Positions 12,226-46,996 of a stretch of 64,000 nt of DNA are shown here, one piece after another (within the stretch, counting starts at the first letter, position 1; the number at the start of each line of letters is the position of its first letter). Under the pieces are notes generated by a model. That model saw only the letters and a program-made list of their open reading frames with translations. It was not told the DNA's origin and did no database searches. The stretch is taken from contig JAUCBJ010006687.1 of NCBI GenBank assembly GCA_032718475.1, positions 10,635-74,634 on the forward strand, written 5' to 3'. The translations under genes and the position numbers were made by a program. The DNA is from Nemertoderma westbladi. Taxonomy: Eukaryota > Animalia > Xenacoelomorpha.

Positions 12226-12249
12226 CCGCTCCCAGAAAATGGGATTTAA

Positions 12250-18400: not shown

Positions 18401-21400
18401 TGCAGTAGTACGCACTACCGAACAGGCATTGGAAGGGCTTGAGATTATCCCAAAGGCCTGGATGGTCATCCAGTACTCCACCGGTTTCTGGTTGAGGTCT
18501 CCTTCGGGCCACCACAGAAATCGTAGACTATCTCGATCCCTATCTAGCACCTTGACTTGTAAGAACATGCCTTCTATATCGGAGGCGAAAGCAATCGAAT
18601 ATTGTCTCAATCTTAAAAGAATTCCCAACAAAGATTGAAGTAAGTTGGGTCCGGGTAACAATTCAGAGTTAAGGGATTGACCCATGTAAAGAGCGGAGCC
18701 ATCAAACACTACTCTCACTTCATGTGGTTTACCGGGTTTAGGAACGTAATGGTGAGTTAAGTAATACGTTCTTTCAGTCACAGGTGTTTCTTCCGGTACT
18801 CTCTCCGCGTATCCCTTACTAATAAATTTCTCCAGCTGTGTTTGATACATTGCTTTAGCTGAAGAATTAGCCGTAAGGCGTCGATGGAGTTGCGCGATTC
18901 TTTTTTCCGCCAAGGGTCTGTTATTGATGAACTTCGGTTCTCTCTTGCGGAAAGGTAGACCGACTTCATACCTACCTTGATCTTTGAGGAAACGTGTAGT
19001 TGTCTCTTGGATCTGCTTGGCCCTTTCCTCTTCCACCGACAAGGCTTTATCGTAGGAATTGGGCTCTACCGCCTCTTGCGTAAAGAATCTTACGGCATGT
19101 TCATCTCGAGTCTTGGCGTTACAACGCTCAATGACGTCATTTAACTCGTCGTTATAAGCTTCTCGTTCAGTTGGATAAAGAAGTTGACATAAGTTCACTT
19201 GGTTTTGCCAAGCTTCGTTTTCCGTAAGGAGATCGATGGTATTCTCCTCATCAAAAAGCTGGTGAATGTTGTCGTTATCTGAGGAGTATGGGGTTCCCTC
19301 AGTTAAATCGTCTCTCTCACTAGTATCATCTTCCCATTCACTCACCTGGTAGACGCGCTCTTGCGGTAGTCTTTCTCTGAGTGTTCTACGGGAAGGGCCA
19401 GTAAAGTACCAACCTACTCTAGTTCTTACCGCATAGGTCTGTAGTGGCTGCGGTTGAGCAGGCCGTTTCTCCAATGTCTCCAGCGCCTCATGCGCGTTTT
19501 GGCCGATGAGTATTTGCACTCCAGGATAATCAGTCTGGAATCGAGGTATCTTAAGATGTTGGATGCTCTCATCCTCGTCCCAATTATAAAGGTCTGCTTG
19601 AGTAGTAGCGAAGTTCTTTATAGCCACCATTTTCACCGACCTTATGCTATGTTCTCCTAGTTCGTCTTGTGGGGTGGACAACGCGCCTATATAATAATCA
19701 GCTGTTACTGTAGATTTCCAAACTTGCATAATGCCGGACATGTTTAGCTTAGTTCGGAACTTGGGTTGTCCAATGAAGATGTCTTCGGCTAGTTCTTTAT
19801 CAATGAATGTTCCTGTGCTGCCGGAGTCCAGGAGGGCGTTCACTATATAGCTCTTCTGAGGTCCATGGACCCGTAACTGGACTACAGGAAATTCTCGGAT
19901 TCCTACATTGGAAGTTGGTGCTTTCCACGATGGTTGTCGCTCAGAAGTAGTTAGAGTGAAGTCGTTGTCTGTATCCTTTTCATATGTGAGTGCTCGATAC
20001 ACTGCGGTATTTATCATGTAACAGGAATCGTTTTCGTCGGAGAACTCGTCCGTATAGAATCCTTCCATCTCAGATTGATCAGTGTCGTTCACATCACTGA
20101 ATTGGACATGTAGTTCGGAATCACTTACCTGATTAGGACTATTTCGATTGAATTCAGCGTGCAACAAGATATGATGCTTCGCACCACACTTTGCACACCT
20201 TATGTCTGAGTAACAGGTTCGCCATTGATGTCCTTGTCTGAGGCAATTATAACACAACCGCTTGTCCCACATGACTTCACGTCTCTCAGTTAATGATTTC
20301 TTTAGAAATTCATCACACATATTCAAGCGATGGGTCCCATCACATAGCGCACATTTTGGTTTGATGTTACTCACCTTAATCTGAGTCACATTGTGTACAC
20401 TTGCCTTTTCTTCGGGCTTTCTCACTGGAATTCTCTTGGGAGACGTGGGAGGAGTTTTTCTTACCTGTTCTCTCCTGTCATTTGCTCGAGACTTGAATTT
20501 ACTTACCTGATCTTTAGGCATTTTATTGACATAATAAGATCTATCAGTGTCTTTCCCGCTATCTTCTCCTTGAGAAGTCTGGCTTTCGCCGTCGTCTGTA
20601 TAACACACTGGTGTTACCTTTCTCCTAGAGACGGGTTTTTCACTTACCTTGTTTTCCGGTGTCTTCTCTCTGGACAGTTTCAGGAGCTGTAATTTCACTT
20701 CTCCATCTAGGAATGACATGAGATCAGCCATGGTAGGTGTTGTGGATCTCGTCGTTGTTGTTCCATCATATATAACACTTTCTTATCCCAGCGTGTACCT
20801 ACTCCACCCTTCGGTAAAGTAGAAGCCACTGCTCTAATAACCATAGCATTCTGATACTCCTGAGACTTACCTAGCCAATCTAATTGTCTACAGATCTCCT
20901 GAATCTCATCGGAAAACTCGATAATTCCGCTGCTAATAAACTTTCGGGGCGCTACCAACTTTGCATACAAATACCCAGCGATGTTATTCCTATTACCATA
21001 CCTGATGTTTAGTGTATCCCAAACTTGTCTTAATCCGTCTGGATGTCCAATATACTTTAACGCCATTAATTTGGGAGATCCTTCCAAGCACTCGATGAGG
21101 AATCTAAGTTTCTCTCCATTAGATAGTACAGAGTTCTGTATGTTATCTTTGTAATATTCATTAAAAGGTAACCATTTCATCTCATCTCCATTGAACTTGA
21201 CGATCTCTCCCACCTTCACCGCTTGCCGGGCTTCAGTTCTAGCCATTTGACGCGTAAAACTTTCTTGGGCCATCGTGTTATTTAATATCGAGTTATCGGT
21301 ATATAAATTTCTCGGATTATGATCAGGTCTATAGGGAATGTCATTATCAACAGGTCTATAATTACCCTTAATAGGGTTCACTATAGGAGTTTCTACTTCG

Positions 21401-23655
21401 CTAGCAGTATATATGCGTGTAGGCTCCACACCTTGCGCATGAGATACTTCAGACCTAACAGGTTGACACATTGTTACCGAGGGTGGTGGTATACCCCTTT
21501 GAGTATTTACTAATTTATCGCGTTCTAGCGCGATACTTTGCTGCACTTCTTGCAACTCTAGCCTACTTTCCCTTACTGTGCCCTTGAATTGCTGAACAGT
21601 CTCCTGCATCTGCCCGAGCAGGAGATCCATCCCCCGCCGTCTCTCGTCCACCCATTCGACCGCCGAAACGGGAGTCGCCAACGTTGTAGCGGGTGGACGA
21701 GGGACAACGGGCGACAAATCATGAATATTTCGCTCGGGGTCCAGGACCTGAACTGTCTCCTGGGCAGTTCTACTGGGCACAGGTAGCTTAGTGCTATGCA
21801 GAGGGAATTTAGAGGTAGCTTCAGGGAGCACAGGTGTGTCTATCACCGAAGGGGTGATTTCAAGAACAGGCCTAATTATTTCAGGCTCATCTACTATAGT
21901 AGGGAGTCTTTCTATTTGAATTATTTGGTCTGTGGGCTCTGTACTACCTAAGTTGGTGTTATTTAGTTGTCTTCTAACAGCTGGAGGCAAATCAGGCAAT
22001 TTCTGACGATGGAATGTTCTTTTACGTCTGCTTAGACGAGATCTATTTCCTTTGCCTTCAGTATCGGTAGTATCGCCTTCCTCAGATGATGTATACCCCT
22101 GTCTTTTGGGAGTAGATCGACTCATCATCTGCATATTACTAGCTGTTAACTGTTTATTGAAGTTGTCTTGCCTCTCTTGAAGATTTTCCAACTCTAGTTG
22201 GGTTGCCTCTTCAGATGCCCTCCGTTCTGCTTCTGCCACTGCCTCTGCTGTTGCCAGTGCCGCTTTTCTTTCCGCTTCGGCCTCTGCCACTGCCGATGCC
22301 GCTTTCCTTTCCGCTTCGGCCTCTGCCACTGCCACTGCCACTGCCGCTTTTCTTTCCGCTTCTGCCGCTGCCACTGCTGCTGCCACTGCCGCTTTTCTTT
22401 CAGCTTCTGCCGCTGCCACTGCTGCTGCCGCTTTTCTTTCCGCTTCTGCCTCTGCCACTGCTGCTGCCACTGCCGCTGTCTTTCTATCTTCTATACGTTT
22501 TTTCTTTACTTGTTCTTCTTGGTCTCTAGCGATGCGGAGTTGTTCATCGAATTTAGCTTAGTTCGCCGCTAACCTATCCACATCAATTGCATCCAACACA
22601 CGCTGGGCTCCTTCACTATTAGGGCTAAGTCCATCTAGCCTTCTCCTCAACTCTTCATCTCCCAAAAAACGCTGATAGTCTGACAGATAGATGTCAATGG
22701 CATCCCTCTTATGCGGTTTCTCTGCCGTCGCTTCACTTTCCACTTGGGAAAAAGTAGCGTCCGTTGATTCTCCATGGGTTGAGCACTCCTCCAGCTGAGC
22801 TTTCCACTGAGCTGTTCCTTGAACCTGGCGACTCACCCGTTGAAACCAAGTCTTTACGGCAACTTGCAACGACGTGTCTTGTCTTCTTTTAGAAGCCTCT
22901 TCAAAGGCTGATAATATTAGCCTGATTCGCAGAATTCTTTCTCTAACTTGATAAAGCAGTTGTCCCTGCTCTTGAGGTCCTTTAGGTTGTTGAAACAGTT
23001 GTTTTTCTACTCTCTCCATAGAGCTGAAGAATCCCTGTGCGTATCCGGCTGCGGACCTCTTCCACACAGCTGGATCGATGGTTTCCTTGGCTACTCCCAT
23101 CCGGTGTATGTCTTCCCAGGCAGCTTCTGATAAATCGAACGGGAGTCCGGGTCCGGGGAAGTTCCATTGCGACTCGACCATAGATTTCAGTTCTTCCTTT
23201 GTGTATCCCGCATAACTATCTTTAGTTGAGCGCTTACTTCTCGCCCAATCGATCTGGTGTTCTTCCACCGCGATCAATAGCCTAGTGAGTACGGCTGCAG
23301 GAAGGATGAGAAGGGGATCCGAATAAACCGCATCCGTCATCCTTGCTCCGCGCTCGGGTGTCAGTTCTACAGTATCTTCACTACTGGAGCTGTCGGGCCG
23401 CTGAGAAATAAGTTCTTGGCTCGCGGGTTGTTGCTGTTCCGCTGCTTCTTGGTCCCGCTTGACCTGAGCTCGAGTGCCTATGATAGACCTACGATGTTGG
23501 ACCAGCCTAGGTTCTGTTATTACTACTGGAGGGATGACCTTCCTCACAGTGGGAGGTGAACTGAACTTAGGACTAGACGGTTCTACACCTCTGTCTGAGT
23601 CGCAGATAGTTACATCTAATAAACTGTCTGACAGGTTCTGTTTAGTGTCAGACAT
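15458..23655 (-). pseudogene. gag-pol of BEL copy 1, with three lesions
   Basis: Colinear with copy 2. Nonsense TAA at 22558-22560, 8-nt insertion frameshift at ~20740, nonsense TGA at 16202-16204. Contains DUF1759-like KFNGDEMKWLPF, Zn knuckles, LLDSGS protease, YMDD RT, HVFGDAS RNase H, HHCC/DDE integrase. Confidence 0.93.
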
Positions 23656-25982
23656 GTTGGTTTGCACAGTTGAATGCCTACTGCTATATTACAGTTTAAG
23701 CAAGTCTAGTAATTCAGAGTTAACTGCTAGCCTAGTAATTAATTACCGATACTGCTACTCAGTGTAGCGTGATATATATAATATATTAGAATACCGGTAT
23801 GCTTATTGTATATATAAGTATTATTACAGACTAGGTTTTTCACAGAAACCGGTATATAATTTTAGCGCAAATATATATAAATATATAATAGGCCTATCGG
23901 GAATACCGGTATACAGCTTACAGTTTGTAGTATATATAATTCTGGACTAGAATTAATTACAAGTACCGGTATAATTTCAGCCTAAATTTATAGAAATAAA
24001 GATAATAGGCCTATCGTAAATACCGGTATGCAGTTTACACTTATAGTGTATATATATAAGTATAATTACAAACTAGAATTAATTACAGAATACCGGTATG
24101 ATTTCAACCTAAAATTTATAGAAATAAATATAATAAGCCTATTGTAAATACCGGTATGTCAATTATTTTAAATAACTGAATTTCTGAATTTTAAGGGTTA
24201 CTTGGTTACCTTAACTTACTTTATTGCCGTTATTTAAGCAGTAGTCCAACTGATATTGAGACCTAATTGTTGTATGGCAGGCCTACTATTTATAAATCGT
24301 TTGAGTTGATTTATAATATATATATACCCGTTTAATGGGTTTTGTCAATGTTGAAATAAATGTTATTATTTCTGGGGAGTAATCACTACACAAAGCGGTG
24401 CGCTTTCAGTGAAGTGTTACTTATAGGACACTAAAACAAATAATGCTAATTTACCTAAGTTACTTAATACTACAAATTACGTACGATTCGGGTTGAGATT
24501 ACAATCTCTAAATAAACACAAAAATTTACAAAAACACAAATACGAATTTTCAGGGTAATTGTACAAGATGTCTACAAACCAGCCTAACAAAGGGTTAGTA
24601 TCTGGTTATTACAACGGACAGGGTACTACGGTATTTGAAAATAATAAGTAGTAGTAAATACACTGCGTTGTCCAGATAGGAAAATACCACCGCCTGACGA
24701 CCTATAGCCGTATCGCTATAGGTACTACGTTATGTATCACGGAGTGTTCCTACCTAGAAGTTAATAGAGCTAATCGAACGTGCCTATCAACCACTTTACA
24801 ACACAAATATAATGCCTACACTAATTACTTTCGGAAAGCACTGTACACTAAACCCTAAATTAGGTACGAGTACTTGTACAACAAATAATCAGTAGTTAAA
24901 TATACTTGAACAGCTAAAAGAACCACGGCATCTGCTGGAGTGACCGGTGCACAAAATCACCAGTCTTTACCTACGCCAAGCAGCCCGTGTAGTACCGGGG
25001 TTAGTTTAACTATAGCGGTATGTATAACAAACACAATTATTGTAGGAACAAACTTGGGGAATGAATGTTGCGAATAATCGCATAAACTCTGAATAATAAA
25101 TATTACGCTACGCGTACAAACCACTCAAACAAAATGCAGACCAAACACTGACAGACTACTATCAAGCCTAAATAAACTACAGGACATGCAGACTCCGAAA
25201 TAGTTAGGTAGTATGCGTTCTAACCCAGTAGTACGACTTATTCTTTAGATGGGGGTTTACCTTACAGCATTGGCTGCCCCTACTTCCTAACCGTTCTTTA
25301 TCGGACAGAGGCTCTACACACACTGCAATCCGTTCAGACCTAATAACAGCCAGACAACTATCCAGCCTACAAATTATCTAAATAAATATTATACGCTACC
25401 TGTACAGACTACACAAACAAAGTACAGACTAAACGATGGCAGACTACTCTCAAGCCTAAATAAACTACAGGACATGCAGACTCCGAAATGATTAGGTAGT
25501 ATGCGTTCTAACCCAGTAGTACGACTTATTCTTTAGTTGGGGGTTTACCTTACAGCATTGGCTGCCCCTACTTCCTAACCGTTCTTTATCGGACAGGTGA
25601 TCTACACACACTGCAATCCGTTCAGACTTAACAGCAATCAGACAACAGCCCAGCCTACAAATTGTCTGTACTATCTGATCAGGCTTACACGCCTTCTGTT
25701 CAATACTGGCCTACAAATAAATAAAACTGACAGAAATAAGTAAGCTCCAAAAGAAACAAGGGGTGTACAGTCCCTAATCTCTTAAACAGCCTACCGGTAT
25801 ACAATAATCAAATCGAATAATACTAATGTACTTATACGGGAAGTACCGGTTAGGACAGTTAGGCCTACGGACCTACAGAAGTACCGGTTCTGGCAGTTGG
25901 ACCTACTGACCTACAGATGTACCGTTCAGGTTTACCGGTTGACCGGTACTTTCAACTTTATTGCTTACTGCAATAAAGAAGC

Positions 25983-25994
25983 TATATCCGTTAT
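25983..25994 (-). promoter_or_regulatory. Non-tRNA primer-binding site of copy 1 (sense ATAACGGATATA), complementary to LTR segment 26753-26764
   Basis: Directly abuts the 5' LTR end; no TGG; perfect 12-bp inverted match inside the LTR. Confidence 0.7.
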
Positions 25995-27202
25995 TGTTCG
26001 CGCTTTCAGACCTTTGGCAGTTTAACCCGCCAAATTAGGATGTCTTTTAGATAATAAATCACTTTTAGCCTATGACAAGTATTTGATTCACTACACTAGT
26101 CGAAACCAATCTGTGCGCGATCATTCACCCGCTGGATATACCCGGGAGATTGGGTTCGACGGCTTAATCTTATTGCTATGTAAGCCTAATGTATTATTCG
26201 ACTGACAGTATTATATAATCTCTGACAATATTATTCACCTTCGGGAAATATTAACAGTTCCTTTAGGACGTGGTGCTCTATCTATATAAACAGAGTTATG
26301 ACTTAAACTACTCACAAGGATATGGCTTAGTTATAATTCACATATATGGCGCATTCTTTAGGAAATGCTTCGTTATCAGACTCACTCATACACAATGCTG
26401 CACAATACTGCACACTGATCTGCCGATCTTCACTGATTTTAGCCACATATAAAAGGAACACGGACCGACTCATGTAGGGTCTATCAAATAACATTAGATT
26501 CACTTCAAACCACTTTAACATAAGTCACAATCGTTATATGTAACCTTTCTCTCTTACCTTTGGTATATCAAGAATATTGGGTTTTCGGGGTTATTTATCG
26601 TTATTCCAAATATAATAATTCATCAACCATATTATGAAGAACTGACAGTAAATAGCAGTATAACAATATAAAAGTATGCACAGGTTGTTTGATTAGGTAT
26701 GGTATGTTATGTTTAGTTCATCAGTGATCAGACATCAGTTAAGTATGGATTGATAACGGATATATGTCCTTATAATTAAGCCTACTAGTGTAAGGCTAAA
26801 ACAGAAAAGCACAAAAATATTCCAAAGCCGCTCTCTCCTGGCTTAGGACAGAAAGACCAACAACACTGAAAACTGATAAGAATAACCTTATTTACAAAAG
26901 ATTCCACCCACCACAGAGAAAGAGCATACAGATAGGAAAATTCAGTTCAGTAGATCTGTGATAGGTCGAAATCAAAATCAACTCAAATCCTATTGGCAGA
27001 TACAGAAAGCAGGGCTGTGGGGCAACTTTCCCAAGCTGGTTGGACAATCAAACGTAGCCCAGATCCCTTCGCACAGCAAATCAGCCAATCAGCCGGTAGC
27101 TTGCGCTATTCGAGTTATAGATCCCTTTTAGAGTATTCCAGCGCCTTGGGGGGAACTGGTTAGCAAAGCAAACGAATCAGTTATCCCACAAAAGCTTTTA
27201 CA
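25995..27202 (-). repeat. 5' LTR of BEL copy 1
   Basis: 1208-bp direct repeat of 11018-12225; TG...CA ends; followed by the TSD. Confidence 0.97.
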
Positions 27203-31928: not shown

Positions 31929-32276
31929 ATCTTTGTGATATGTTTGAACATTAATTGGACATTATTGGATGTGCTTGTCAATAAACTAACTAGGCAATTA
32001 ATATACTGTAGTGTATAGTAGAATAAGAATGGCAGTGATTTTTTATGTCCTTTCTTTAGATTTTTTTAGTCCGTAATTTTTTACGAATTTTTCATAATGA
32101 ATTTTTTGATTGTCAAAAATTTGATTGATCATTATGACTTTTTATGTAGGCCCTATATATGCATTTCATCAAAATCAAAATGTCAGACTGATAATTTCTG
32201 GACTGTCAGACAATTGATTTCACCATGCCCCGGTGCCTGTGTCAAACCAAGGGGTATAACTTTTGCGTAGAGGTTT

Positions 32277-33487
32277 TGTAAAAGCTTTTGCTGAATTGTC
32301 CGGTTATTTTTCCTTATTTTTCCCGTAAAGTACTCTGTAGTTGGTTTACCAGGCATAAAAAGGCCGTGTCCTTGCTGTACTGGTGTTTTAGCGGACATAA
32401 AAGCTATTTCTTCTGTATTTGTACTTTAGAGGACATAATCCGTAATTCCGTGACGTAAAAGCTCGATACTCTTGAAAACAGTGTCGCTACCATGACGACG
32501 GCTAGCAGCTGATATTGCCACGTCGACGTTTCTTTGTTTCTCTGTTCTCTCGTTGTTCAGGTTGACCAATCAGAGCGTTTGTTGTCTCTGTGTTGGAGGT
32601 ATATACAGAAACTCAGTAGTTCAGTGTTATGTTTTTGCCCAGAGCTTAAGAACCGGCTTTGGCACCTCCGTGTTTTCAGTTTTTAGTCTTACACTAGTAG
32701 GTTTAATTATAAGGACATATATCCTTTATCTACCTGGCTTTTAATCGCTGCTAACTGATCATACATACTGACTGCTGAAACATTGCAAACTCATAACAAT
32801 CAGTGTTCAGTTGTTGTTTTATACTGCTATTTACTGTCAGTTCTTCATAATATGGTTGATGAATTATTATATTTGGAATAACGATAAATAACCCCGAAAC
32901 CCAATATTCTTGATATACCGAAGGTAAGAGAGAAGGGTTACAGATAAACGATTGTGACTTATGTTAAAGTGGTTTGAAGTGAATCTAATGTTATTTGATA
33001 GACCCTACATGAGTCAGTCTGTGTTCTTTTTATATGTGACTAAAATCAGTGAAGATTGGCAGATTAGTGTGCAGTATTGTGCAGCATTGTGTATGAGTGA
33101 GTCTGTTAAAGAAGCAATTCCTAAAGAATGCGCCATATATGTGAATTATATTTAAGCCATATCGTTGTGAGTAGTTTAAGTCATAACTCTGTTTATATAG
33201 ATAAAGCGCCACGTCCTAAAGGAACTGTTAATATTCCCGAAAGTGAATAATATTGTCAGAGATTATATAATACTGTCAGTCGAATAATACATTAGGCTTA
33301 CATAGCAATAAAATTAAACCGTCGAACCCAATCTCCCGGGAATATCCAGCGGGTGAATGATCGCGCACAGATTGGTTTCGACTAGTGTAGTGAATCAAAT
33401 ACTTGTCATAGACTAAAAACCGATTTAATATCTAGAAGACATCTTAATTTGGTGGGTTAAACTGCCAAAGGTCTGAAAGCGCGAACA
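32277..33487 (+). repeat. 5' LTR of BEL copy 2
   Basis: Direct repeat of 46997-48207 (3 substitutions noticed by eye). Confidence 0.97.
32560..32630 (+). promoter_or_regulatory. Candidate LTR core promoter
   Basis: CCAAT at ~32566, TATATA at 32600-32605, TCAGT initiator-like motifs at 32613 and 32621; copy 1 has TAAATA...TCAGTTTTCAGTGTT at the equivalent place despite otherwise diverged U3. Confidence 0.4.
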
Positions 33488-33488
33488 T

Positions 33489-33499
33489 TAAAGGATATA
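33489..33499 (+). promoter_or_regulatory. Non-tRNA primer-binding site of copy 2 (TAAAGGATATA), complementary to LTR segment 32718-32728
   Basis: Starts 1 nt after the LTR end; no TGG; perfect 11-bp inverted match inside the LTR. Confidence 0.7.
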
Positions 33500-33860
33500 G
33501 CTTCTTTATTGCAGTAAGCAATAAAGTTGAAAATACCGGTCAACCGGTAAACTTGAACCGGTACTTCTGTAGGTCAGTAGGCCCAACTGCAAGAACCGGT
33601 ACTGCTGTAGGCCCGTAGGTCCAACTGCCAGAACCGGTACTTCTGTAAGTCCGTAGGCCTAACTGTCCTAACCGGTACTTCCCGTATAAGTACATTAGTA
33701 TTATTCGATTTGATTGTTGTATACCGGTAGGTCTTAATACTTAATCAGGGAATGGCCGCCCTGGTTTTTTATTGAGATTTTACTTATTTCTGTCAAGTTT
33801 TATTTGTTTGTAGGCCAGTATTGAACAGAAGACGTGTAAGCCTGATCAGATTGTGCAGAC

Positions 33861-34430
33861 AATTTGTAGGCTGGGCTGTTGTCTGATTGCTGTTAAGTCT
33901 GAACGGATTGCAGTGTGTGTAGATCACCTGTCCGATTAAGTACGGTTAGGAAGTAGGGGCAGCGAATGCTGTAAGGTAAACCCCCAACTAAAGAATAAGT
34001 CGTACTACTGGGTTAGAACGCATACTCCCTAATCATTTCGGAGTCTGCATGTCCTGTAGTTTATTTAGGCTTGAGAGTAGTCTGCCATCGTTTAGTCTGT
34101 ACTTTGTTTGTGTAAGTCTGTACGGGTAGCGTATAATTTTATTTAGATAATTTGTAGGCTGGATAGTTGTCTGGCTGTTATTAGGCCTGAGCGGATTGCA
34201 GCGTGTATAGATCACTTGTCCGATTAAGTACGGTTAGGAAGTAGGGGCAGCGAACGCTGTAAGGTAAACCCCCAACTAAAGAATAAGTCGCACTACTGGG
34301 TTAGAGCGCATACTCCCTAATCATTTCGGAGTCTGCATATACCGTAGTTTGTTTAGGCTTGATAGTAGTCTGTCAGTGTTCGGTCTGCATTTTGTTTGAG
34401 TAGTTTGTACGCGTAGCGTAATATTTATTA
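33861..34430 (+). repeat. ~288-bp tandem duplication in the BEL 5' leader (copy 1 equivalent ~25095-25665)
   Basis: Units start AATTTGTAGGCTGG at 33861 and 34149. Confidence 0.9.
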
Positions 34431-35364
34431 TTCAGAGTTTATGCGATTATCCGCAACATTCATTCCCCAAGTTTGTTCCTACAATAATTGTGTTTGTTAT
34501 ACATACCGCTATAGTTAAATTAACCCCGGTACTACACGGGCTGCTTGGCGTAGGTAAAGACTGGTGATTTTGTGCATCGGTCACTCCAGCAGATGCCGTG
34601 GTTCTTTTAGCTGTTCAAGTATATTTAACTACTGATTATCTGTTGTACAAGTACTCGTACCTAATTTAGGGTTTAGTGTACAGTGCTTTCCGAAAGTAAT
34701 TATTGTAGGCATTATATTTGTGTTGTAAAGTGGTTGATAGGCACGTTCGATTAGCTCTATTAACTTCTAGGTAGGAACACTCCGTGATACATAACGTAGA
34801 ACCTATAGCGATACGGCTATAGGTCGTCAGGCGGTGGTATTTTCCTATCTGGACAGCGCAGTGTATTTACTACTACTTATTATTTTCAAATACCGCAGTA
34901 CCCTGTCCGTTGTAATAACCAGATTTCTAACCCTTTGTTAGGCTGGTTTGTAGACTTCTTGTAAAATTACCCTAAAAATTCGTATTTTGTGTTTTTGTAA
35001 ATTTTTGTGTTTATTTAGAGATTGTAATCTCAACCCGAATCGTACGTAATTTGTAGTATTAAGTAACTTAGGTAAATTAGAATCATTTGTTTTAGTGTCC
35101 TGTACGTAACACTTCACTGAAAGCGTACCACTTTGTGTAGTGATTACCCCAGAAATAATAACATTTATTTCAAACATTGACAAAACCCATTAAAACGGGT
35201 ATATATATATTATAAATCAAATCTAACGATTTATAAATAGTAGGCCTACCATACAACCATTAGGTCTCAATATCAGTTGGACTACTGCTCAAATAACGGT
35301 AATAAAGTAAGTAAAGTAACAAAGTAACCCTAAAATTCAGAAATTCAATTATTTAAAATAATTG

Positions 35365-35655
35365 ATATACCGGTATTTACGATAGGCCTATTATCTTTAT
35401 TTCTATAAATTTAGGCTGAAATTATAACGGTACTTGTAATTAATTCTAGTCCAGAATTATATATACTACAAATTGTAAGCTGTATACCGGTATTCCCGAT
35501 AGGCCTATTATATATTTATATATATTTGTGCTAAAATTATACCGGTATTCTGAGATAAACCTAGTCTGTAATAATACTTATATATACTATAAGCATACCG
35601 GTATTTTAATATATTATATATATCACGCTACACTGAGTAGCAGTATCGGTAATTA
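35365..35655 (+). repeat. ~58-bp-period TACCGGTA minisatellite just upstream of gag (copy 1 ~23790-24160)
   Basis: ACCGGT or a variant recurs at ~35369, 35427, 35486, 35541, 35597. Confidence 0.8.
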
Positions 35656-35739
35656 ATTACTAGGCTAGCAGTTAATACTGAATTACTAGACTTGCTTAGA
35701 CTGTAATATAGCAGTAGGCATTCAACTGTACATACAAAT

Positions 35740-38700
35740 ATGTCTGATACTAAGCAGAACCTGTCAGACAGTCTATTAGATGTAACTATCTGCGACTCAG
35801 ATAGAGGTGTAGAACCCTCTAGTCGTAAGTTCAGTTCACCTCCCACTGTGAGGAAGGTCATCCCTCCAGTAGTAATAACAGAACCTAGGCTAGTCCAACA
35901 TCGTAGGTCTATCATAGGCACCCGAGCTCAGGTCAAGCGGGACCAAGAAGCAGCGGAACAGCAACAACCCGCGAGTCAGGAGCTTGTTACTCAGCGGCCC
36001 AGCAGCTCCAGTAGTGAGGATACTGTAGAGCTGACACCCGAGCGCGGAGCAGAGATGACGGATGCGGTTTATACGGATCCCCTTCTCATCCTTCCTGCAG
36101 CCGTACTCACTAGGTTATTGATCGCGGTGGAAGAACACCAGATCGATTGGGCGAGAAGTCAACGACCAACTAGAGATAGTTATGCTGGATACACAAGGGA
36201 AGAAATGAAGTCCATGATCGAGTCGCAATGGAACTTCCCCGGACCCGGACTCCCGTTTGATTTATCAGAAGCTGCCTGGGAAGACATACACCGGATGGGA
36301 GTAGCCAAGGAAACCATCGATCCAGCTGTGTGGAAGAGGTCCGCAGCCGGATACGCACAGGGATTCTTCAGCTCTATAGAGCGATTAAAAGAACAACTGT
36401 TTCAACAACCTCAAGGACCTCAAGAGCAGGGATTGCTGCTTTATCAAGTTAGAGAAAGAATTCTACGAATCAGGCTAATCTTATCAGCCTTTGAGGAGGC
36501 TTCTAAACGAAGACAAGACACGTCGTTGCAAGTTGCCGTAAAGACTTGGTTTCAACGGGTGAGTCTCCAGGTTCAAGGAACAGCTCAGTGGAAAGCTCAG
36601 CTGGAGGAGCGATCAACCCATGGAGAATCAACAGACGCTACTTTTTCCCAAGTGGAAAGTGAAGCGACGTCAGAGAAGCCGCATAAGAGAGATGCCATTG
36701 ACATCTATCTGTCGGACTATCAACGTTTTTTAGGTGATGACGAATTGAGAAGAAGGTTAGATGGACTTAGCCCTAATAGCGAAGGAACCAAGCTTGTGTT
36801 GGATGCCATCGATGTGGAAATGAGGGCTGCGAATCAGGCTAAATTTGATGAACAACTCCGCCTGACACGAGTCCAAGAAGAACAAGTAAAGAAAAAACGT
36901 ATAGAAGACCGAAAGGCAGCGGCAGTAGCAGCAGCAGTGGCAGCTGCAGAAGCAGAAAGAAAAGCGGCAGCGGCAGAGGCAGCGGCAGAGGCAAAAGCGG
37001 CAGTAGCAGCAGCAGTGGCAGCTGCAGAAGCAGAAAGAAAAGCGGCAGCGGCAGAGGCAGCGGCAGAGGCAAAAGCGACAGTAGCAGCGGCAGTGGCAGC
37101 TGCAGAAGCAGAAAGAAAAGTGGCAGCAGCAGAGGTAGCGGCAGAGGCAAAAGCGGCGGAGGCAGTGGCAGAAGCCGAACGGAGAGCTACTGAAGAAACC
37201 ACTCAATTAGAATTGGAAAACATTCAGGAGAATCAAGACTGCATAAATAAACAGTTAACAGCCAGTAATATGCAGATGATGAATCGATCTACTCCCAAAA
37301 GACAGGGATATACATCATCTGAGGAAGGCGATATCACCGATACTGAAGGCAAAGGAAATAGATCTCGTCTAAGCAGACGTAAAAGAACATTCCACCGTCA
37401 GAAATTGCCTGATTTGCCTCCAGCTGTTAGAAGGCAACTAAATAGCACCAACTTAGGCAGTACAGAACCCACAGACCAAATAATTAAAATAGAAAGACTC
37501 CCTACTATAGTAGATGAGCCTGAAATAATTAGGCCTGTTCTCGAAATCACCCCTTCGGTGATAGACACCCCTGTACTCCCTGAAGTTACCTCTAAATTCC
37601 CTCTGCATAGCACTAAGCTACCTGTGCCCCGTAGAACTGCCCCAGAGACAGTTCAGGTCCTGGGTCCCGAGCGAAATATTCATAATTTGTCGCCCGTTGT
37701 CCATCGTCCGCCCGCTACAACGTTGGCGACTCCCGCTTCGGCGGTCGAATGGGTGGACGAGGGACGGCGGGGGATGGATATCCTGCTCGGACAGATGCAG
37801 GAGACTGTCCAGCAGTTCAAGGGCACAGTAAGGGAAAGTAGGCTAGAGTTGCAAGAAGTGCAGCAAAGTATCGCGCTAGAGCGCGATAAATTAGTAAATA
37901 CTCAAAGAGGTATACCACCACCCTCTGTAACAATGTGTCAACCTGTTAGGTCTGAAGTATCGCATGCGCAAGGTGTGGAGCCTACACGCATATATACTGC
38001 TAGCGAAGTAGAAACTCCTATAGTGAACCCTATTAAGGGTAATTATAGACCTGTTGATAATGACATTCCCTATAGACCTGATCATAATCCGAGAAATTTA
38101 TATACCGATAACTCGATATTAAATAACACGATGGCCCAAGAAAGTTTTACGCGTCAAATGGCTAGAACCGAAGCCCGGCAAGCGGTAAAGGTGGGAGAGA
38201 TCGTCAAGTTCAATGGAGATGAGATGAAATGGTTACCTTTTAATGAATATTATAAAGATAACATACAGAACTCTGTACTATCTAATGGAGAAAAACTTAG
38301 ATACCTCATCGAGTGCTTGGAAGGATCTCCCAAGTTAATGGCGTTAAAGTTTATTGGACATCCAGACGGATTAAGACAAGTTTGGGATACGCTAAACATC
38401 AGGTATGGTAATAGGAATAATATCGCTGGGTACTTGTATGCAAAATTTGTAGCGCCCCGAAAGTTTATTAGTAGCGGAATTATCGAGTTTTCCGATGAGA
38501 TCCAGGAGATCTGCAGATAATTAGATTGGCTAGGTAAGTCTCATGAGTATCAGAACACTATGGTTATTAGAGCAGTGGCTTCTACTTTACCGAAAGGTGG
38601 AGTAGGTACACGCTGGGATAAGAAAGTGTTATATATGATGGAACAACAACGACGAGACCCTACCATGGCTGATCTCATGTCATTCCTAGATGGAGAAGTG

Positions 38701-41700
38701 AAATTACAGCTCCTGAAACTGTCTAGGGAGAAGACACCGGAAAGCAAGGTAAGTGAAAAACCCGTCTCTAGGAGAAAGGTAACACCAGTGTGTTATACAG
38801 ACGACGGTGAAAGCCAGACTTCTCAAGGAGAAGATAGCGGGAAAGACACTGAGAGATCTTATTACGTAAATAAAATTCCTAAAGATCAGGTGAGTAAATT
38901 CAAGTCTCGATCAAATGACAGGAGAGAACAGGTAAGAAAAACTCCTCCTACGTCTCCCAAGAGAATTCCGGTGAGAAAGCCCGAAGAAAGGGCAAGTGTA
39001 CACAATGTGACTCAACATAAGGTAAGTAACATCAAACCAAAATGTGCGCTGTGTGACGGGATCCACCATTTGAATAGGTGTGATGAATTTCTAAAGAAAT
39101 CATTAACGGAGAGACGCGAAGTCATGTGGGATAAGCGGTTATGTTATAATTGCCTCAGACAAGGACACCAACGGCGAACCTGTTTCTCTGACATAAGGTG
39201 TGCAAAGTGTGGTGCGAAACATCATATCTTGTTGCACGCTGAATTCGATCGAAATAGTCCGAATCAGGTAAGTGATTCCGAGCTACATGTCCAATTCAGT
39301 GATGTGAACGACACTGATCAATCTGAGATGGAAGGATTCTACACAGACGAGTTCTCCGACGAAAACGAATCCTGTTACATGATAAATACCGCAGTGTATC
39401 GAGCGCTCACCTATGAAAAGGATACAGACAACGACTTCACTCTAACTACTTCTGAGCGACAACCATCTTGGAAAGAGCCATCTTCCAATGTAGGGATCCG
39501 AGAGTTTCCTGTGGTGCAAGTGAGGGTTCACGGACCTAAGAGGAGTTATGTAGTGAACGCCCTCCTTGACTCCGGTAGTACAGGAACATTCATCGACAAA
39601 GAGCTAGCCGAAGATATATTTGCTGGACAACTCAAGTTCCAAACTAAGCTCAACATGTCTGGCATAATGCAAGTTTGGAAATCTACAATCACAGCGGATT
39701 ATTATGTAGGCGCGTTGTCCACCCCACAAGACGAACTAGGAGAACACAGCATAAGGTCAGTGAAAATGGTGGCTATAAAGAACTTCGCTACTACTCAAGC
39801 AGACCTTTATAATTGGGACGAGGATGAGAGCATCCAACATCTTAACATACCTCGATTCCAGACTGATTATCCTGGAGTGCAAATACTCATCGGCCAAAAC
39901 GCGCATGAGGCGCTGGAGACATTAGAGAAACGGCCTGCTCAACCGCAGCCCCTACAGACCTATGCGGTAAGAACTAGAGTAGGTTGGTACTTTACTGGCC
40001 CTTCCCGTAGAACACTCAGAGAAAGACTACCGCCAGAGAGCGTATGCCAGGTGAGTGAATGGGAAGATGATACCAGTGAGGGAGACAACTCAACTGAGGG
40101 AATTCCATACTCCTCAGATAACGACGACGTTCACCAGCTTTTTGATGAGGAGAATACCATCGATCTCCTTAAGGAAAATGAGGCTTGGCAAAACCAAGTT
40201 AACTTATGTCAACTTCTCTATCCATCTGAACGAGAAGCTTATAACGACGAGTTAAATGACGTCATTGAGCGTTGCAATGCCAAGACTCGAGATGAACATG
40301 CTGTACGATTCTTTACGCAAGAGGCGGTAGAGCCCAATTCCTACGATAAAGCCTTGTCGGTGGAAGAGGAAAGGGCCAAGCAGATCCAAGAGACGACTAC
40401 ACGTTTCCTCAAAGATCAAGGAAGGTACGAAGTCGGTTTACCTTTTCGCAAGAGAGAACCGAAGTTCATCAATAACAGACCTTTGGCGGAAAAAAGAATC
40501 GCGCAACTCCATCGACGCCTTACGGCTAATTCTTCAGCTAAAGCAATGTATCAAACACAGCTGGAAAAATTTATTAATAAGGGATACGCGGAGAGAGTAC
40601 CGGAAGAAACACCTGTGACTGAAAGAACGTATTATTTAACTCACCATTACGTTCCTAAACCCGGTAAACCCAATGAAGTGAGAGTAGTGTTTGATGGCTC
40701 CGCTCTTTACATGGGTCAATCCCTTAACTCTGAATTGTTACCCGGACCCAACTTACTTCAATCTTTGTTGGGGATTCTTTTAAGATTGAGACAATATTCG
40801 ATTGCTTTCGCCTCCGATATAGAAGGCATGTTCTTACAAGTCAAGGTGTTAGATAGGGATCGAGATAGTCTACGATTTCTGTGGTGGCCCGAAGGAGATC
40901 TCAACCAGAAACCGGTGGAGTACTGGATGACCATCCAGGCCTTTGGGATAATCTCAAGCCCTTCCAACGCCTGTTCGGTATTGCGTACTACTGCAGAGGA
41001 CAACCGAGAGGCATTCTCTAAGGAAGTAATCGACAACACCAAGAGAGACATATACATGGACCACAATCTGAAGTCCCTCCCATCAGTTGAGGAAGCCATT
41101 GAGGTCGCTAAGGGAACGGTAGAGTGCTTAAAAAGAGGTGGATTTCGATTAACCAAATTCACCAGCAACTCCCGTGAGTTTCTGGAGTCGATCCCTGCGG
41201 AAGATCGAGGGGCGAAAGATCTCGATTTGATCAAAGATGATCTGCCAGAGACCAAGACACTCGGCTTGAAATGGGACACAGAGCGAGATATTCTGTTTTT
41301 CCAACTAAAACAGCGAGATAATCCAGTTCGAACCAAACGGATTTGCTTAAGTATACTGAGCACTTATTTCGATCCATTGGGATTTATTAGCCCAGTTATA
41401 TTGATTGCTCGTAGTTTGGTACAACAAATGTGGCTTGAAAACCATTCATGGGACGATCCACTTAAGGGGGAATTATTGAAGCAGTGGATGAAATGGGAAG
41501 ATTCGCTGCCAGCTATCGAAGATTTTATAATTTCCCGTTCATATTTTGGTCATGTTCTCCCTACGTATTCCTATCAACTCCATGTGTTTGGAGACGCCAG
41601 CGATATGGGAATCGGTATAGTAGCCTACCTAAGAGTGGAAACTCCGGATGGAATCAAAGTCGCCTTGGTTACTTCTAAGGCATTAATCAACAACAAGTTG

Positions 41701-43938
41701 AAAGTTCCTCGAGCGGAGTTAAAGGCGGCTCTATACGCTACAGCCATCGGCCGGAATGTAACCGAACAGATTGACTATACATTAGAGAAAACTGTCTATT
41801 GGACCGACGCTTTACTCGTGTTAGAGTATATAACCAATGAAGTCTGTCAGTTCAGCGTCTTCGTTACCAACAGGGTAGCCATCATACTTAGTCGCACGAC
41901 GATGGACCAATGGAGACATTGCCCCGGAACGATTAATCCAGCAGACATCGCGTCCCGAGGAGCGACTCCAAAGGAATTGGTAAATACTCCCGAATGGTTA
42001 GGAGGACCCGACTTTCTCTACAGAGAAGAAGAAGAATGGCCTCCCCATCTCACAACAGCAGAGATCAGACAGGCCAAGGGAGCGGAGAAAGTTAAACCCA
42101 AAACTCGAGCGAGTAAATCGAAGTTATTTAAACCTGCGGTTGATCTATCTGTATTATTTACTTCCGGAGAGGATGCTTTGGATCAGAAACCCACCGCCAC
42201 GACTAAAGAAGTCTTGGAAATCCGTGACAAGGATTGGAAATCTGGAATACCAGATATCTCACAAGGACTCTCACCTCTCTTGCAGCGAGCGATACGTCAC
42301 TACAGTTCCTGGAATCGGCTCTGTAAAGCTGTTACCTATTTGAAACGATGTTTTCATCATCGTTACTCCGGGACAAAGACCAATAGTGATGATGCTCCAT
42401 CAACATCTGCACGAGTCCATGTTGTTAAAGATCTTCCTAAATACAAGATATCCGACAGGTTTCTAAAGGAAAAGATCAGTTACCAGGAGCATGATGAAAC
42501 CAACAAACAGATGCTGAGACTTCTACAATGCTATGAGGATTCCGATAAGTATTTCCTGTTGTTAAGAAATCCACAGATGCGCTTAAGGGATCGCTTCTCT
42601 AGTACCATGATAGATGGGTTAATACGTGTTGGAGGTAGGCTGACCAACGCCCCATTATCCTTTGACACTAAGTTTCCCATACTCATTAGAAATCTTGATA
42701 TACAAATCAAGATAATTGTAGATGTTCATAGCAAACTGTACCATGCTGGTAGAGAACGAGTTCTGAGCGAAATTCGAACTCGCTACTATTTTTATAAACC
42801 CCGTAGGGCTCTGAACCAAGTTCTTAGGAACTGCATACCCTGTAGGAAAGCATTCAGTAGGCCTTTAACACAGCGAGAGGCAGAATTACCTAGGGAAAGA
42901 GTAAGCTTCTATGAACCACCCTTTACTAATACCGGTGTGGATTTATTTGGCCCTATTGAAGTATATCGTGCCCGGACTATAGTCAAGAGATGGTGTGTCA
43001 TCTTCGTTTGTATGACTTGTAGAGCTATCCATCTCGATATGGTAAACGATCTATCCACCAACAGCTTCGTGTTGAGTTTACGACGACAGATCGCTCGTTT
43101 CGGAACCAGTAACACGATGAGATCGGATAAGGGAACGAACTTCATTGGCGCCAACAACGAAATTCAAGCTTACGTGAAGGACTGGAACAAAAGACAGGTG
43201 GACGATCAGCTAAAGATAACAGCGTCTAGTTGGACCTTCAACGCCGCCGACGCCCCTTGGTGGGGAGGAAGTTGGGAGAGATTGATTAGGAGCATGAAGA
43301 CTGCGTTCCACTTTATTGTGCCTTGTCGCGCTTATCTCACCGACGAATTATTGCGGACGTTAATGGAGGAAATCGCCGCCTATCTCAACGAAAGACCGCT
43401 TATGCCAGTCTCTTCAAATCCTGATTCCCTGGAAGCGCTAACACCCGCGCACTTTCTACTGAAGAAACCCGTAGCCATGCTCCCACGATCGGAGATCACA
43501 GACGGAGACGAGTACTGCCGTCGAACCTGGCAACTTATGCAGTTGCTATCCCGTCGTTTCGCTGACCATTTCGAGAAACATTACCTGCCCACTCTACAAC
43601 TTCGAACTAAGTGGTTTGCGCAGCAAGAAAACGTCAGCGCTGGAGACATGGTGCTTATTGTGGACCCCGATCTCCCACGTAAGCGATGGCAAACAGGACG
43701 TATCATCGAGACTTATATCTCGAGCGATGGTTTGGTGCGATCAGTAGAGCTCGTCGTCATGCGGCGGAACTTTAAGAAACCAGGGATAGTCTTTGAGACT
43801 CAACAGCTCAATCGCCCAGTGGGTCGTTTATGTTTACTGGAAAGAGACAGAGAGCTCTCCGGAAACTATGGAAGGCAAGAAACTCTTCCCACGACCACTT
43901 CCCTAATCCAACCGACATCTAGGGACTCCCCAACTTAA
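35740..43938 (+). pseudogene. Single-frame gag-pol of BEL copy 2 (~2730 codons) with one internal stop and an RT active-site change
   Basis: ORFs 35740-38520 and 38560-43938 share a frame, split by TAA at 38518 (CAA in copy 1); YMDD is YMDH at 41053-41064; PR LLDSGS, RH HVFGDAS, IN H..H...C..C and D,D,E motifs present. Confidence 0.95.
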
Positions 43939-45586
43939 TATCGTTCGGAGTGGGCGTGTGACTCTATTATTTTATATTATTTTATTATTTTTATATTTAT
44001 GTATGTATTACTATGTAATTTTATTATAATCGTTTTATTTAATTTAGTAGAATATTATTTAGCGATTATTTTGTAGAATAGTGCAATATATTCGTGTTTA
44101 TTACGTACGTAATTACTTATATTATATTTAGTGAGACGGCGAAGAAATAATTATTTTTCTCTTTCCTTACTGTCCGTATTATATTATAAATACGTAACTA
44201 CAGTAAGATGAAATGTCCGTACTTATTAAAGTACAATAAAGCCACTACTATATTTAAGTATTATTGGTAGGCAGAGTATTAGGAATGCAAAGTTCAGATC
44301 CTCGTGTCTCGGCTAAACCAAGCTCTGGGTAGACCTTGGAAACGACTTGCCTCTTCACACTGACATTGCTTCGTGCGATATTGCTCTCATACCGTATATT
44401 AAATAATACATATAGTAGCGTGATGTCCCTTTAACAGTAGCGTATAACGCAAAATAAATCTGTTAAACCCTTTGACCATCTGTAATTCTAGTCGATTAAG
44501 ATATCGCGGCACCCACCGATATACTTGAAAGACAAATTCTAGAATCAGTGGTTAACGTCCCCAGACAAGTTCTGGACTAAATCGGTGCCCATCTCAAATA
44601 TTAATTATTTAATATTTGCAAATCTAATAAATCAAAATCTGTAAAATTCAGATCCTTCCACAATTCTAGTCAATTAAGATATCGTAGCATTTACCGATAT
44701 TCTTAAAAAAGACAATTGTCATAGAGTTAAGGATCTTGTGTCCCTAGACATGTTCTAGAATCAAAATATGTCCATTTAATTATCAAATAATAAAATTTCA
44801 GGGAATAAATTTAAATTCATGCCTTTTAATGAATTTAATAAATTGCCATTTTTACGCAATTTATAAAGTTCCCAAAATTCCATTAATTAATAGATCAAGG
44901 GAGCGGAGATTTATCTTATTATGCATATGAGTGTGCGAAAGTCTCCCAAACATAGTCAATAGCCGATAAAATTCATAAAGTCATGTATAAAACAGAACAT
45001 TGACTATTAAAGAATACTATTAAATAACATCCCAGATCTGTATGCATTGGAATCACCCTAATTCTACCGCTAGCTTTGCATAATGTCACCATAGCAACAA
45101 CCACGCTAGAATTAGAATTGAGTTAAACGAACAATAGAAAGCTTGTCCCATTGAATAGCATAGGGAATAAATAGCGTACTACTAGTATCCAAGGATACAT
45201 AATAATACAGTGACATTCTGGAAGGCATTGACTAACGGACAAATGGCCCGAATGTGCGTAGTTGTGACCAGTTGTGTGGTATTTGTGAGTTTATAGGTGA
45301 ATGTTACTGCTAAGGTGTGTTTACAGTAGCTAGTCGCAATCGTAAAAGTAACCTAACTCTCCAAGGAAAACCTGAAGTACATCTAAGCCTTTGGGACGGA
45401 CAGTTGAGTGACTTGTGCCGGTTGTCGTTGTCGTTGTGCGGCTACGTCGTTGGCGAAAGTACAGCGGCGACGACACATCGGCGCTGAGGATCTCGTACTG
45501 TCCGGGGGTTGATTGGGGTAGGCAGCGACGCCCGCTCGCCTAAATATAAACTCATTATAATATGGATAAACTCATATATAGCAGAT

Positions 45587-46990
45587 ATGACGGAGTTGAT
45601 AGAAGATGGTCTTGGTATCGGGGAGCGATATACTCTACTTTTACAAGCGTTTGTTGATAGCTTAATACGCGGCGACGTTAGTTCAACTGCTGCGGAGGAC
45701 GATGGTCGTTATATCGAACCGCCAATGTCCCAAGAGCAGCTCACGCGTGAGTTGGACTGTAGAAAATTCGCTGCTCGATATACGCAGCGTAATGGTACGT
45801 ATATGGGCTTCTTAACTACTGGTCATCCTATCGATTTACACAATACGGACTATGTCGACTATATATCCTGCCCAGCGGAGTCGGAACCATAAACTGAAAT
45901 TCGAATGCGAAAATTCTATTCGAAATCGACTCGAAAGAAAAGACACTAAAGAAACAAATGGACGCGGTAACTCCAACGTATATTTGGAATTCTTGATAGA
46001 AGCATTGTAACAACAAATAAATATCACCCGCGTTTCCCCTACCAGACGTGCGTCTTTGGTATTATTACGATAAATGTCCTAGACCCAGCCAATAAACGGA
46101 AAGACATAAACATCCACGGAAACATTGTGTTAAACACAGTTGTGCTCGTTATATTTACTGGAGTTCGAGCGAAACTTGTTTGACGTATCACCTATGCTCA
46201 CTCGGCTCGAACGATCCTGGAGTAAACCTACGATCAGAGTCCCGGAATACTCGGTCAAATTTCCTCATTCCTTAGTTGGACCTCAGACCTGCGATCCTGA
46301 TGGTGTCGCGGATCCTCGCGGACTGTATTCACTGTTCAAAGATCTAGTGCTACCCTAACAATTAATCGGTAACACTCCGACAGTGATTTCTAGCTAGCCG
46401 CCCATCTTACCTAGCCGGATTGTGACGCGGACACCTAATATCACTATCCAACCGTATGGTTGTCCCCGTTTAACGCGATACAACCCCTCATCAAGGTGAA
46501 GGAGAGCGTTGTACGAAACGAGTTAAACGCTATTCTATAAAGATCAAAAAAGAAACCTGCGTTTGTTCAGATAAACGTAAGTTATAACAGTAAGTCCAAT
46601 CGATAAACGAATTGGCTTTATCTCAATTCGATTGGGAAATCCAGAATCTCTAAGAAGTTATCGAACTTGGACGATCCTATTCTCTGCGAGAGTTTGTGGA
46701 TGAACGTATCCAGCTACGAGCGGAGGAAAATCAGCTCGAGGAGAAGCATATCGAAACGGCAGATACCTCGACCACAATCCTACACCTTCTGATGCAATCA
46801 TATTGCACCCTTCACCCAGGAGTTATGGCCCTCCTAGTAAAGTGGCTCCCCCAAAGAGAAAAAGACTCTTGCTAGCCTCAAAAAACTGCATAAACGCCGT
46901 CTGCGTAAGAAAGCCTAACTGTTCAGAGTATCTTTATGTTTTAGAAACTGTGATTTTTATATTTTATAGACTGAAAATCCCATTTTCTGG
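45587..46990 (+). pseudogene. Decayed additional ORF (ORF3) of BEL copy 2
   Basis: Pieces 45587-45892, 46140-46358 and 46803 onward are homologous to copy 1 12250-13804; multiple stops, frameshifts and a ~0.2-kb deletion near 46020. Confidence 0.6.
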
Positions 46991-46996
46991 GAGCGG

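Follow-up and report, generated by a model that had tools for sequence, protein, structure and literature searches.

The window analysed here is a 64,000-nt stretch of Nemertoderma westbladi DNA (assembly GCA_032718475.1, contig JAUCBJ010006687.1, positions 10,635 to 74,634 of the forward strand), which was found to contain two copies, in opposite orientation, of one long terminal repeat (LTR) element of the BEL/Pao type. Copy 2, defined by its LTR pair, flanks and Pfam matches, occupies 32277..48207 of the plus strand (15,931 bp) and has no target-site duplication (TSD), and copy 1, defined by its LTR pair and flanks, occupies 11018..27202 of the minus strand (16,185 bp) with the TSD AGCAG. 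The 5' LTR of copy 2 (32277..33487, plus strand; 1211 bp, TG...CA) differs at 3 positions from the 3' LTR (46997..48207, plus strand), while in copy 1 the 5' LTR runs from 27202 to 25995 on the minus strand and the LTRs, 1208 bp long, show 4 differences in the stretch compared. As detailed below, this family very probably starts minus-strand DNA synthesis with a piece of its own RNA, a reading that we derive from the primer-binding site (PBS), its counterpart in the LTR and the corresponding sites of related loci.

The coding regions were broken in both copies. Reading frames and Pfam matches placed the gag-pol of copy 2 at 35707..43938 (plus strand), with an in-frame stop at 38518-38520 and an altered catalytic motif of the reverse transcriptase (RT), and that of copy 1 was disrupted by stops near 22558 and 16202 and by a shift of frame near 20780. 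The Gag and Pol domains were of the BEL type, in the order protease, RT, RNase H and integrase (PR-RT-RH-INT), and the Pfam matches to DUF1759, Peptidase_A17, Integrase_H2C2 and DUF5641 together identify the element as BEL/Pao. PF05380 was found in all 120 of the RT-RNase H homologues among the matches listed. The proteins closest to this region, at 41-45% identity, came from aquatic animals, the named relatives being from cnidarians, echinoderms, fish, a tunicate, a clam and a ribbon worm.

The primer-binding position in the window and in related loci

No TGG was found within the first 40 nt downstream of the 5' LTR in either copy. The primer-binding position of copy 2 (site C, 33488..33499, plus strand) is instead complementary to a segment inside the LTR, the predicted self-primer (site A, 32718..32729, plus strand), with 33489-33499 forming the exact reverse complement of 32718-32728, i.e. 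an 11-nt match at offset 1 with the 12th base of site A mismatched. In copy 1, site A (26753..26764, minus strand) is a 12-nt perfect complement of that copy's own PBS (25983..25994, minus strand), beginning with the first base after the terminal CA (offset 0). Site A was the longest complement of the PBS to be found in either element, and a second copy of it lies in the 3' LTR of copy 2, at 47438-47448. Comparison of the two copies revealed a two-sided compensatory change, with T or G at 32725 accompanied by A or C at 33492, as well as a change on one side only, at 33488, which is paired in copy 1 and a T-T mismatch in copy 2. The 3' end of site A is aimed into U5. Our check of the sequences thereby bore out what the original prediction had read from this DNA, namely a missing TGG, an exact 11-nt complement inside the LTR, a joint change of both sites in copy 1 and a duplex with its 3' end towards U5.

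When the LTRs were dinucleotide-shuffled, an 11-nt match at offsets 0-5 arose in 9 of 5000 cases for copy 2 and 7 of 5000 for copy 1 (approximately 0.2%), and among internal positions a match of 11 nt was reached by 6 of 13,484 in copy 2 and 9 of 13,744 in copy 1, with the PBS itself included in the counts. The primer segment is contained in a conserved island of 52 nt (32680..32731, plus strand) having 4 substitutions between the copies and flanked on both sides by sequence that aligned poorly between copy 1 and copy 2; the island starts with a pyrimidine-rich AG, a possible splice acceptor. Directly 3' of the PBS, a 9-bp hairpin (33504..33526, plus strand) with AATAAA in its 3' arm was identical in both copies. 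Neither a tRNA gene nor an Rfam RNA was detected in the 64-kb window, to which the tRNA search was confined, and no self-encoded tRNA-like primer, of the kind attributed to Cer7 of C. elegans, was found in the window elements.

A third site in the LTR was seen to follow the PBS. Site B, as defined by alignment and folding, lies at 33106..33115 (plus strand) in copy 2 and at 26367..26376 (minus strand) in copy 1; it contains in each copy a repeat of the first 6 bases of the PBS, is complementary to the 3' half of the primer and carries in copy 1 the same two changes as the PBS of that copy. Aligned over 707 positions in 32822-33530, the copies show 30 differences, among which an A-to-C change occurs only at 33110 and 33492, and a T-to-A change only at 33106, 33151 and 33488, with 33106-33111 matching the first six PBS bases in register, both changes included. 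This three-way mirroring of both PBS changes by a site in the LTR is new here and goes beyond the original prediction, although it was spotted post hoc and is based on two copies. The helix between sites A and B in copy 1 has 8 bp (-9.4 kcal/mol), spans the predicted cut and was present in the ensemble, and that of copy 2 was weak (-3.0). Site B also pairs at 9 of 10 positions with 33500-33509, and because this partner is unchanged between the copies, site B evidently tracks the primer and not the leader. Site B probably pairs with the 3' half of the primer at some step, as a gate or a cleavage helix; whether its role would be to gate the primer or to hold the cut site is a guess.

Other DNA of the family was sought in sequencing runs. 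At least two-thirds of the element's sequence words were found in three DNA runs of two studies, and no RNA run was among the sequencing runs listed as matching the element. Loose-end rows of one run (X1), which may stem from the source sample, contained a variant of the LTR with complementarity over the full 12 bases of the copy 2 PBS (14 and 5 records), unlinked to a PBS. For contigs on 32560-33600, no variant fell in sites A or B or in the PBS among the 40 variant rows listed, beside which there were 92 more, an absence that proves nothing.

Independent evidence came from related loci. A profile built from 29 proteins retrieved 40 BEL loci (L011-L050), all from prokaryote assemblies; these are animal-type BEL/Pao loci, several of them with intact LTR pairs, and most likely contaminating host DNA. 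In 19 of the 40 the LTR was searched for the longest stretch exactly complementary to the leader, whether uninterrupted or spanning a consensus GT-AG junction. A self-match, each time with the locus's own sequence, was found in nine (eight across a junction and one contiguous), a TGG site in eight, one was negative and one (L021) yielded no test. The self-match was 11 nt in eight loci and 12 nt in one. L014 and L015, both with two LTRs, have 11 nt only across a junction, with 3 bases from exon 1 and 8 from exon 2, and 2 of the 3 exon-1 bases differ between these two loci, with their PBSs changed accordingly. L018, also with two LTRs, holds the contiguous 11-nt match, while junction matches of 11 nt were seen in L011, L012, L016, L017 and L019, and one of 12 nt in L034. 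As in both window copies, the match begins 0-5 nt past the LTR end in 8 of the 9 relatives. Control leaders reached 11 nt in 0 of 150 cases per locus, except for window copy 1 (2 of 150), and the background rate of 11-nt matches in the relatives was 0-0.0005 per position. The TGG sites (L027, L030, L038, L040, L041, L042, L044 and L045) we take, on established knowledge, to be tRNA-type sites; one TGG 16-mer is common to six of these loci (L030, L038, L041, L042, L044 and L045), and the self-match does not exceed 6 nt in L027, L030, L038, L040 and L041. Primers spanning a splice junction had no place in the original prediction. A metagenome scan with an 18-nt LTR-end pattern gave 10 matches, all 10 by chance, and scans of viral contigs found no relative.

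In a quick maximum-likelihood tree of 35 RT-RNase H segments, rooted at the midpoint and leaving out seven loci, among them L034, whose best single alignment was shorter than 300 amino acids, one branch of 14 rows (SH-aLRT 99) united both window copies with L011-L022, apart from rows left out. It comprised eight self-type loci together with L013, L020, L021, L022 and the window copies, and all eight tRNA-type loci fell outside it. For the labelled rows (6 self-type and 5 tRNA-type) a single change between the types suffices, and none of 500 shuffles did as well. The match in the window is real and not due to chance, being part of a clade-wide pattern confirmed on independent DNA, and the clade to which the window family belongs is most likely self-primed as well. 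The proposal, already made in the original prediction, that the element's own RNA acts as primer is supported by where the match lies, by how rarely it arises by chance, by the compensatory change and by the missing tRNA-type site. The nine related loci weigh most: the PBS differs from one to the next and yet matches the LTR of the same locus, and their branch contains no tRNA-type sites.

Models of priming and their alternatives

Following the general LTR replication cycle and the Tf1 element, we envisage that a transcript spanning 32718-32729 would fold back and pair with 33488-33499, whereupon cleavage immediately downstream of the paired segment, for which the Tf1 analogy makes the element's RNase H the likeliest enzyme, would leave a 3'-OH directed into U5. 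Strong-stop DNA would then extend from 33487 back to approximately 32730 and be transferred to the repeat (R) region at the 3' end, so that the primer segment would be re-copied from the 3' LTR. Since the primer would finally be copied in plus-strand synthesis, PBS and LTR would stay complementary, and this would account for their co-variation as well as for the unvarying length of 11-12 nt.

Several observations weigh against this reading. Self-priming is deduced here from sequence alone and not from RNA ends, a cut site or an RNA-DNA junction. The primer-PBS helix is weak (-11.4 and -13.3 kcal/mol), the first base after the terminal CA is mismatched in copy 2, and with a transcript start at 32623 the helix was favoured under none of six splice models in copy 2 and under only two of them in copy 1. 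Co-variation within the family is drawn from two copies. Concerning the relatives, the LTR end was placed by eye in L011, L012, L016 and L017, L019 and L034 have no full second LTR to fix it, the match of L034 lies 8 nt from the repeat end, and L020, on the same branch, has a self-match of at most 8 nt and an incomplete LTR. Their splicing is a prediction from the consensus only, and in L016 the TATA-like boxes lie inside its predicted intron. The tree, being a quick version with a midpoint root, allows a single origin without proving it. Finally, the flanking helices that would complete a 'pretzel' did not exceed controls (Fisher p 0.22 and 0.55 against shuffles, and 0.09 against natural LTR 15-mers).

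With regard to where the transcript begins, the original prediction had placed its start near 32623 and the primer about 95 nt inside the RNA. The candidate start region that we infer (32600..32625, plus strand) has TCAGT initiator-like motifs at 32613-32625 in both copies, in agreement with that start, but copy 1 lacks the TATA-like box that copy 2 has at 32600. An internal primer is favoured by relatives having junction primers 100-225 nt below a TATA-like box, yet a start of the RNA at 32718 was required for the primer-PBS helix to form in both copies. In folds that excluded pseudoknots and protein chaperones, RNA starting at 32718 had 10.7 and 11.6 bp of this helix in the ensemble for the two copies, and with a start at 32623 the helix was absent from the unspliced RNA of both. 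Of the four introns containing site B that were modelled, two restored the helix in copy 1 (10.0 and 10.6 bp, as against 0.6 and 3.2 bp with the others) and none in copy 2. We lean towards an internal primer in the window family, because eight relatives have a primer only across a predicted splice junction; it would call for a second cut, or a stop of the polymerase, at the primer's 5' end. A TATA-like box was seen about 100-225 nt upstream of the predicted donor in L011, L014, L015, L017 and L019, and none was seen upstream in L012, L018 or L034. As exon 1 contributes only 3-9 primer bases in the relatives with junction primers, their primer would not be the capped end, if the splicing is real.

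In the window family, two donor-like sites, at 32924 and 33097, lie upstream of site B, and the former, 3' of the primer, is a strong candidate by sequence (AAG/GTAAGA, 32924..32929, plus strand). No joint at the candidate intron 32924-33001 was listed among contigs on 32560-33600, where run X5 is RNA only by guess. A joint at 32712-32804 in the same run was rejected as an intron, since it has GG..AG ends and unknown letters in between and falls in a hypervariable stretch. A splice-junction primer in the window element itself was also rejected, the best match at a canonical junction being 7 nt in copy 2, with none in copy 1. As a tentative and rather speculative scenario, the aquatic BEL/Pao clade may have left tRNA priming for an 11-12-nt primer cut from its own R region, tying priming to host splicing: most members would build the primer at the exon-exon joint of the LTR, and the window family would mask a contiguous primer with the co-evolving site B in a predicted LTR intron, such that priming would be open to spliced 5' ends alone and closed to the unspliced R copy at the 3' end.

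Two variants of self-priming, both counted within the high probability given to it above, differ in the origin of the primer. In the first, as in Tf1, transcription would start at about 32717-32719 and the capped first 11-12 nt would be the primer, the upstream TATA box and TCAGT motifs being unused for genomic RNA. In its favour, both copies form the complete helix when folded from 32718, and the primer of RNAs with a longer 5' end becomes buried, in a local hairpin for copy 2 and in the helix with site B for copy 1; moreover, the TATA box at 32600 is absent from copy 1, and a capped 11-mer accounts for the fixed length without a second cut. It must be set against this that no TATA box lies about 30 nt upstream of 32718, that the TCAGT motifs have been kept in both copies and that the junction primers with TATA-like boxes 100-225 nt above the donor make the primer of the clade internal, if splicing is real. 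A capped primer is therefore possible, but we consider it doubtful. In the second variant the primer would act in trans: a short RNA derived from a solo LTR, from the 3' LTR or, by early polyadenylation, from the 5' LTR would be packaged together with the genome. It requires no folding across 760 nt, and in L014, L015, L019 and L034 an AATAAA follows about 0-12 nt past the primer, by which a short spliced LTR RNA could arise; the nearest downstream AATAAA in the window family is, however, about 580 nt away and altered in copy 1. Although the data here do not separate cis from trans, we regard a primer in trans as unlikely.

Turning to explanations other than self-priming, the pairing could serve as a structural switch, in packaging, dimerisation, suppression of 5' polyadenylation or control of splicing, with priming by another route. 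Around the site there are indeed mutually exclusive helices (site A with C, site A with B, site B with 33500-33509 and the 33504-33526 hairpin over AATAAA), and a third co-varying site falls outside the Tf1 model. Such a switch is nevertheless improbable, as the match lies 0-5 nt past the LTR end in both copies and in 8 of 9 relatives, is aimed into U5, has the length found in Tf1 and occupies the place of the tRNA site in the outgroup loci.

It is likewise improbable that a host tRNA fragment or other small RNA primes, the LTR match being incidental or a decoy. The anticodon loop of tRNAs follows the pattern Y32-U33-N-N-N-R37. The PBS complement fits this in 1 of 40 registers (with a UUA anticodon), and that of copy 1 in none. 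The TGG is lacking, and a host RNA common to all would leave unexplained why the PBS sequences of the window copies and the nine relatives are so diverse and yet each correspond to the LTR of the same element. In favour of a host primer, the International Committee on Taxonomy of Viruses (ICTV) describes Belpaoviridae as primed by host tRNA (PMC8742986), and half-tRNA priming is known in Ty1/copia elements according to the accessible part of one report (PMC6317226). Chance combined with shared ancestry, for which one could cite the AT-rich LTR and the mere two copies in the window, is negligible in view of the approximately 0.2% level per family, the compensatory change and the recurrence in nine other loci at a background of at most 0.0005 per position.

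Further features of the elements and the window

Other potential helices were noted in the LTR. A U5-inverted-repeat (U5-IR)-like stem at 33358..33366 (plus strand) is an 8-of-9 complement of the last 9 LTR bases (33479-33487), with a duplex of -10.3 kcal/mol and no more than 2 bp in the ensembles; it and the pairing of site B with 33500-33509 were the candidates for the pretzel helices, and both were weak in folds. Extensions of the primer helix on the 5' or 3' side were not significant against controls. An additional 9-10-bp LTR helix, between 32690-32698 and 33381-33389, occurs in both copies and was dominant in the folds with upstream starts.

Copy 2 has near-identical LTRs (3 of 1211 positions differ) yet lacks a 4-6-bp TSD, which points to recombination of two separate insertions or to a joint made in assembly. 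Between the copies, the U3 halves (32296-32650 and 27183-26830) are unrelated or barely alignable while the remaining LTR is about 96% identical, a divergence that looks like the swap of a promoter module, and the 3' internal region beside the LTR is only 83% identical between the copies. Very long non-coding stretches, at 33488-35706 and 43939-46996, bring the element to 16 kb: a 2.2-kb leader with 38-nt and 288-nt tandem repeats and a 3' non-coding region of 3 kb. By sequence, a short purine-rich tract directly before the 3' LTR (46989..46996, plus strand) is the candidate polypurine tract. The 3' region of copy 1 holds an open frame of 246 amino acids (12749-13489, minus strand) having no Pfam match and fragmented in copy 2, possibly the remnant of an accessory gene. 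The Gag N-terminal extension is long, with an Ala/Glu-rich tandem repeat whose unit differs between the copies (35707-38520 and 20707-23688).

Elsewhere in the window, two intron-free frames of SV2/SVOP-like major facilitator superfamily transporters (6110-7603 and 28541-30085), 89% identical, flank copy 1. Fragments of a non-LTR RT, inverted and 95% identical (30414-31950, minus strand, and 50989-52999, plus strand), flank copy 2. There was furthermore a separate long interspersed nuclear element (LINE) frame with endonuclease and RT (53610-56678, minus strand) and an uninterrupted KY-like transglutaminase frame (60831-63008).

Known systems and significance

To our knowledge, Tf1 is the only element with proven self-priming; for the chromoviruses related to it and for a single lineage of plant copia elements it is a prediction. 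With regard to the published record, in the parts of the sources available to us, the first 11 RNA bases of Tf1 are described as a self-primer cut by RNase H (PMC7175516), self-priming is described for Tj1 (PMC4600332) and, with a pretzel of three duplexes, for the Tosmo elements (bioRxiv 10.1101/2022.12.06.519325), and it is predicted for the Tcn1 and TAR lineages (PMC6317226). According to the same partial sources (PMC7175516, PMC4600332, bioRxiv 10.1101/2022.12.06.519325), Tf1 and Tf2 of Schizosaccharomyces pombe, Tj1, Tosmo1-3 and the Tf1/sushi and Tcn1 chromoviruses of the Ty3/gypsy group like the window element, lack a tRNA site and have, adjoining the 5' LTR, a PBS that can pair with some 11 nt of their own LTR. 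The window element is, however, BEL/Pao and not a chromovirus: Pfam and homologue searches gave no chromodomain match in the element and its Pol is of the BEL/Pao type, so that it likely works like Tf1 without belonging to Tf1/sushi. It differs also in that its primer is probably internal and those of eight relatives span a predicted junction, whereas the primer of Tf1 is the first 11 nt of the RNA, and in that its two flanking pretzel helices are without statistical support and an extra site co-varies with the primer.

For the TAR lineage of Ty1/copia (Houba, Osr-1), self-priming was predicted (PMC6317226) from a PBS-LTR match of at least 10 nt located 0-5 nt after the LTR, and such a match is present in both window copies; that lineage belongs to another superfamily and to plant hosts, and a separate origin is likely. 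With Belpaoviridae the element shares a Gag with DUF1759 and zinc knuckles, the order PR-RT-RH-INT, Peptidase_A17, DUF5641, TG...CA LTRs and, in copy 1, a 5-bp TSD, and its LTRs of 1208 and 1211 bp lie within the range of 0.2-1.2 kb. In the ICTV description of this family the PBS has 18 nt and binds host tRNA-Arg or -Gly, and the genome measures 4.2-10 kb (PMC8742986), in contrast to the lack of an 18-nt tRNA PBS and the 15.9 and 16.2 kb found here.

The original prediction knew of no self-priming BEL element, and our literature search likewise found no paper on self-priming or splice-built primers in BEL/Pao, with the qualification that the search excluded most subscription papers, Repbase entries and supplements, so an earlier annotation is possible. 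The available main text of a BEL/Pao survey (PMC3118150) and of the Sinbad paper (PMC554778) contains neither 'PBS' nor 'tRNA', and the accessible portions of PMC2864245, PMC3601003 and PMC13524379 report no self-priming BEL element.

The claim is readily testable, as the predicted ends are exact to the base. If it is true, self-priming would explain why PBS-based LTR annotation comes out blank for these elements, and, as we infer, the elements would escape control by tRNA fragments. We have found no description of reverse transcription starting from a primer that is internal or built by splicing, and a self-priming BEL/Pao clade would represent a further independent origin of self-priming, in a third major LTR superfamily and in animals.
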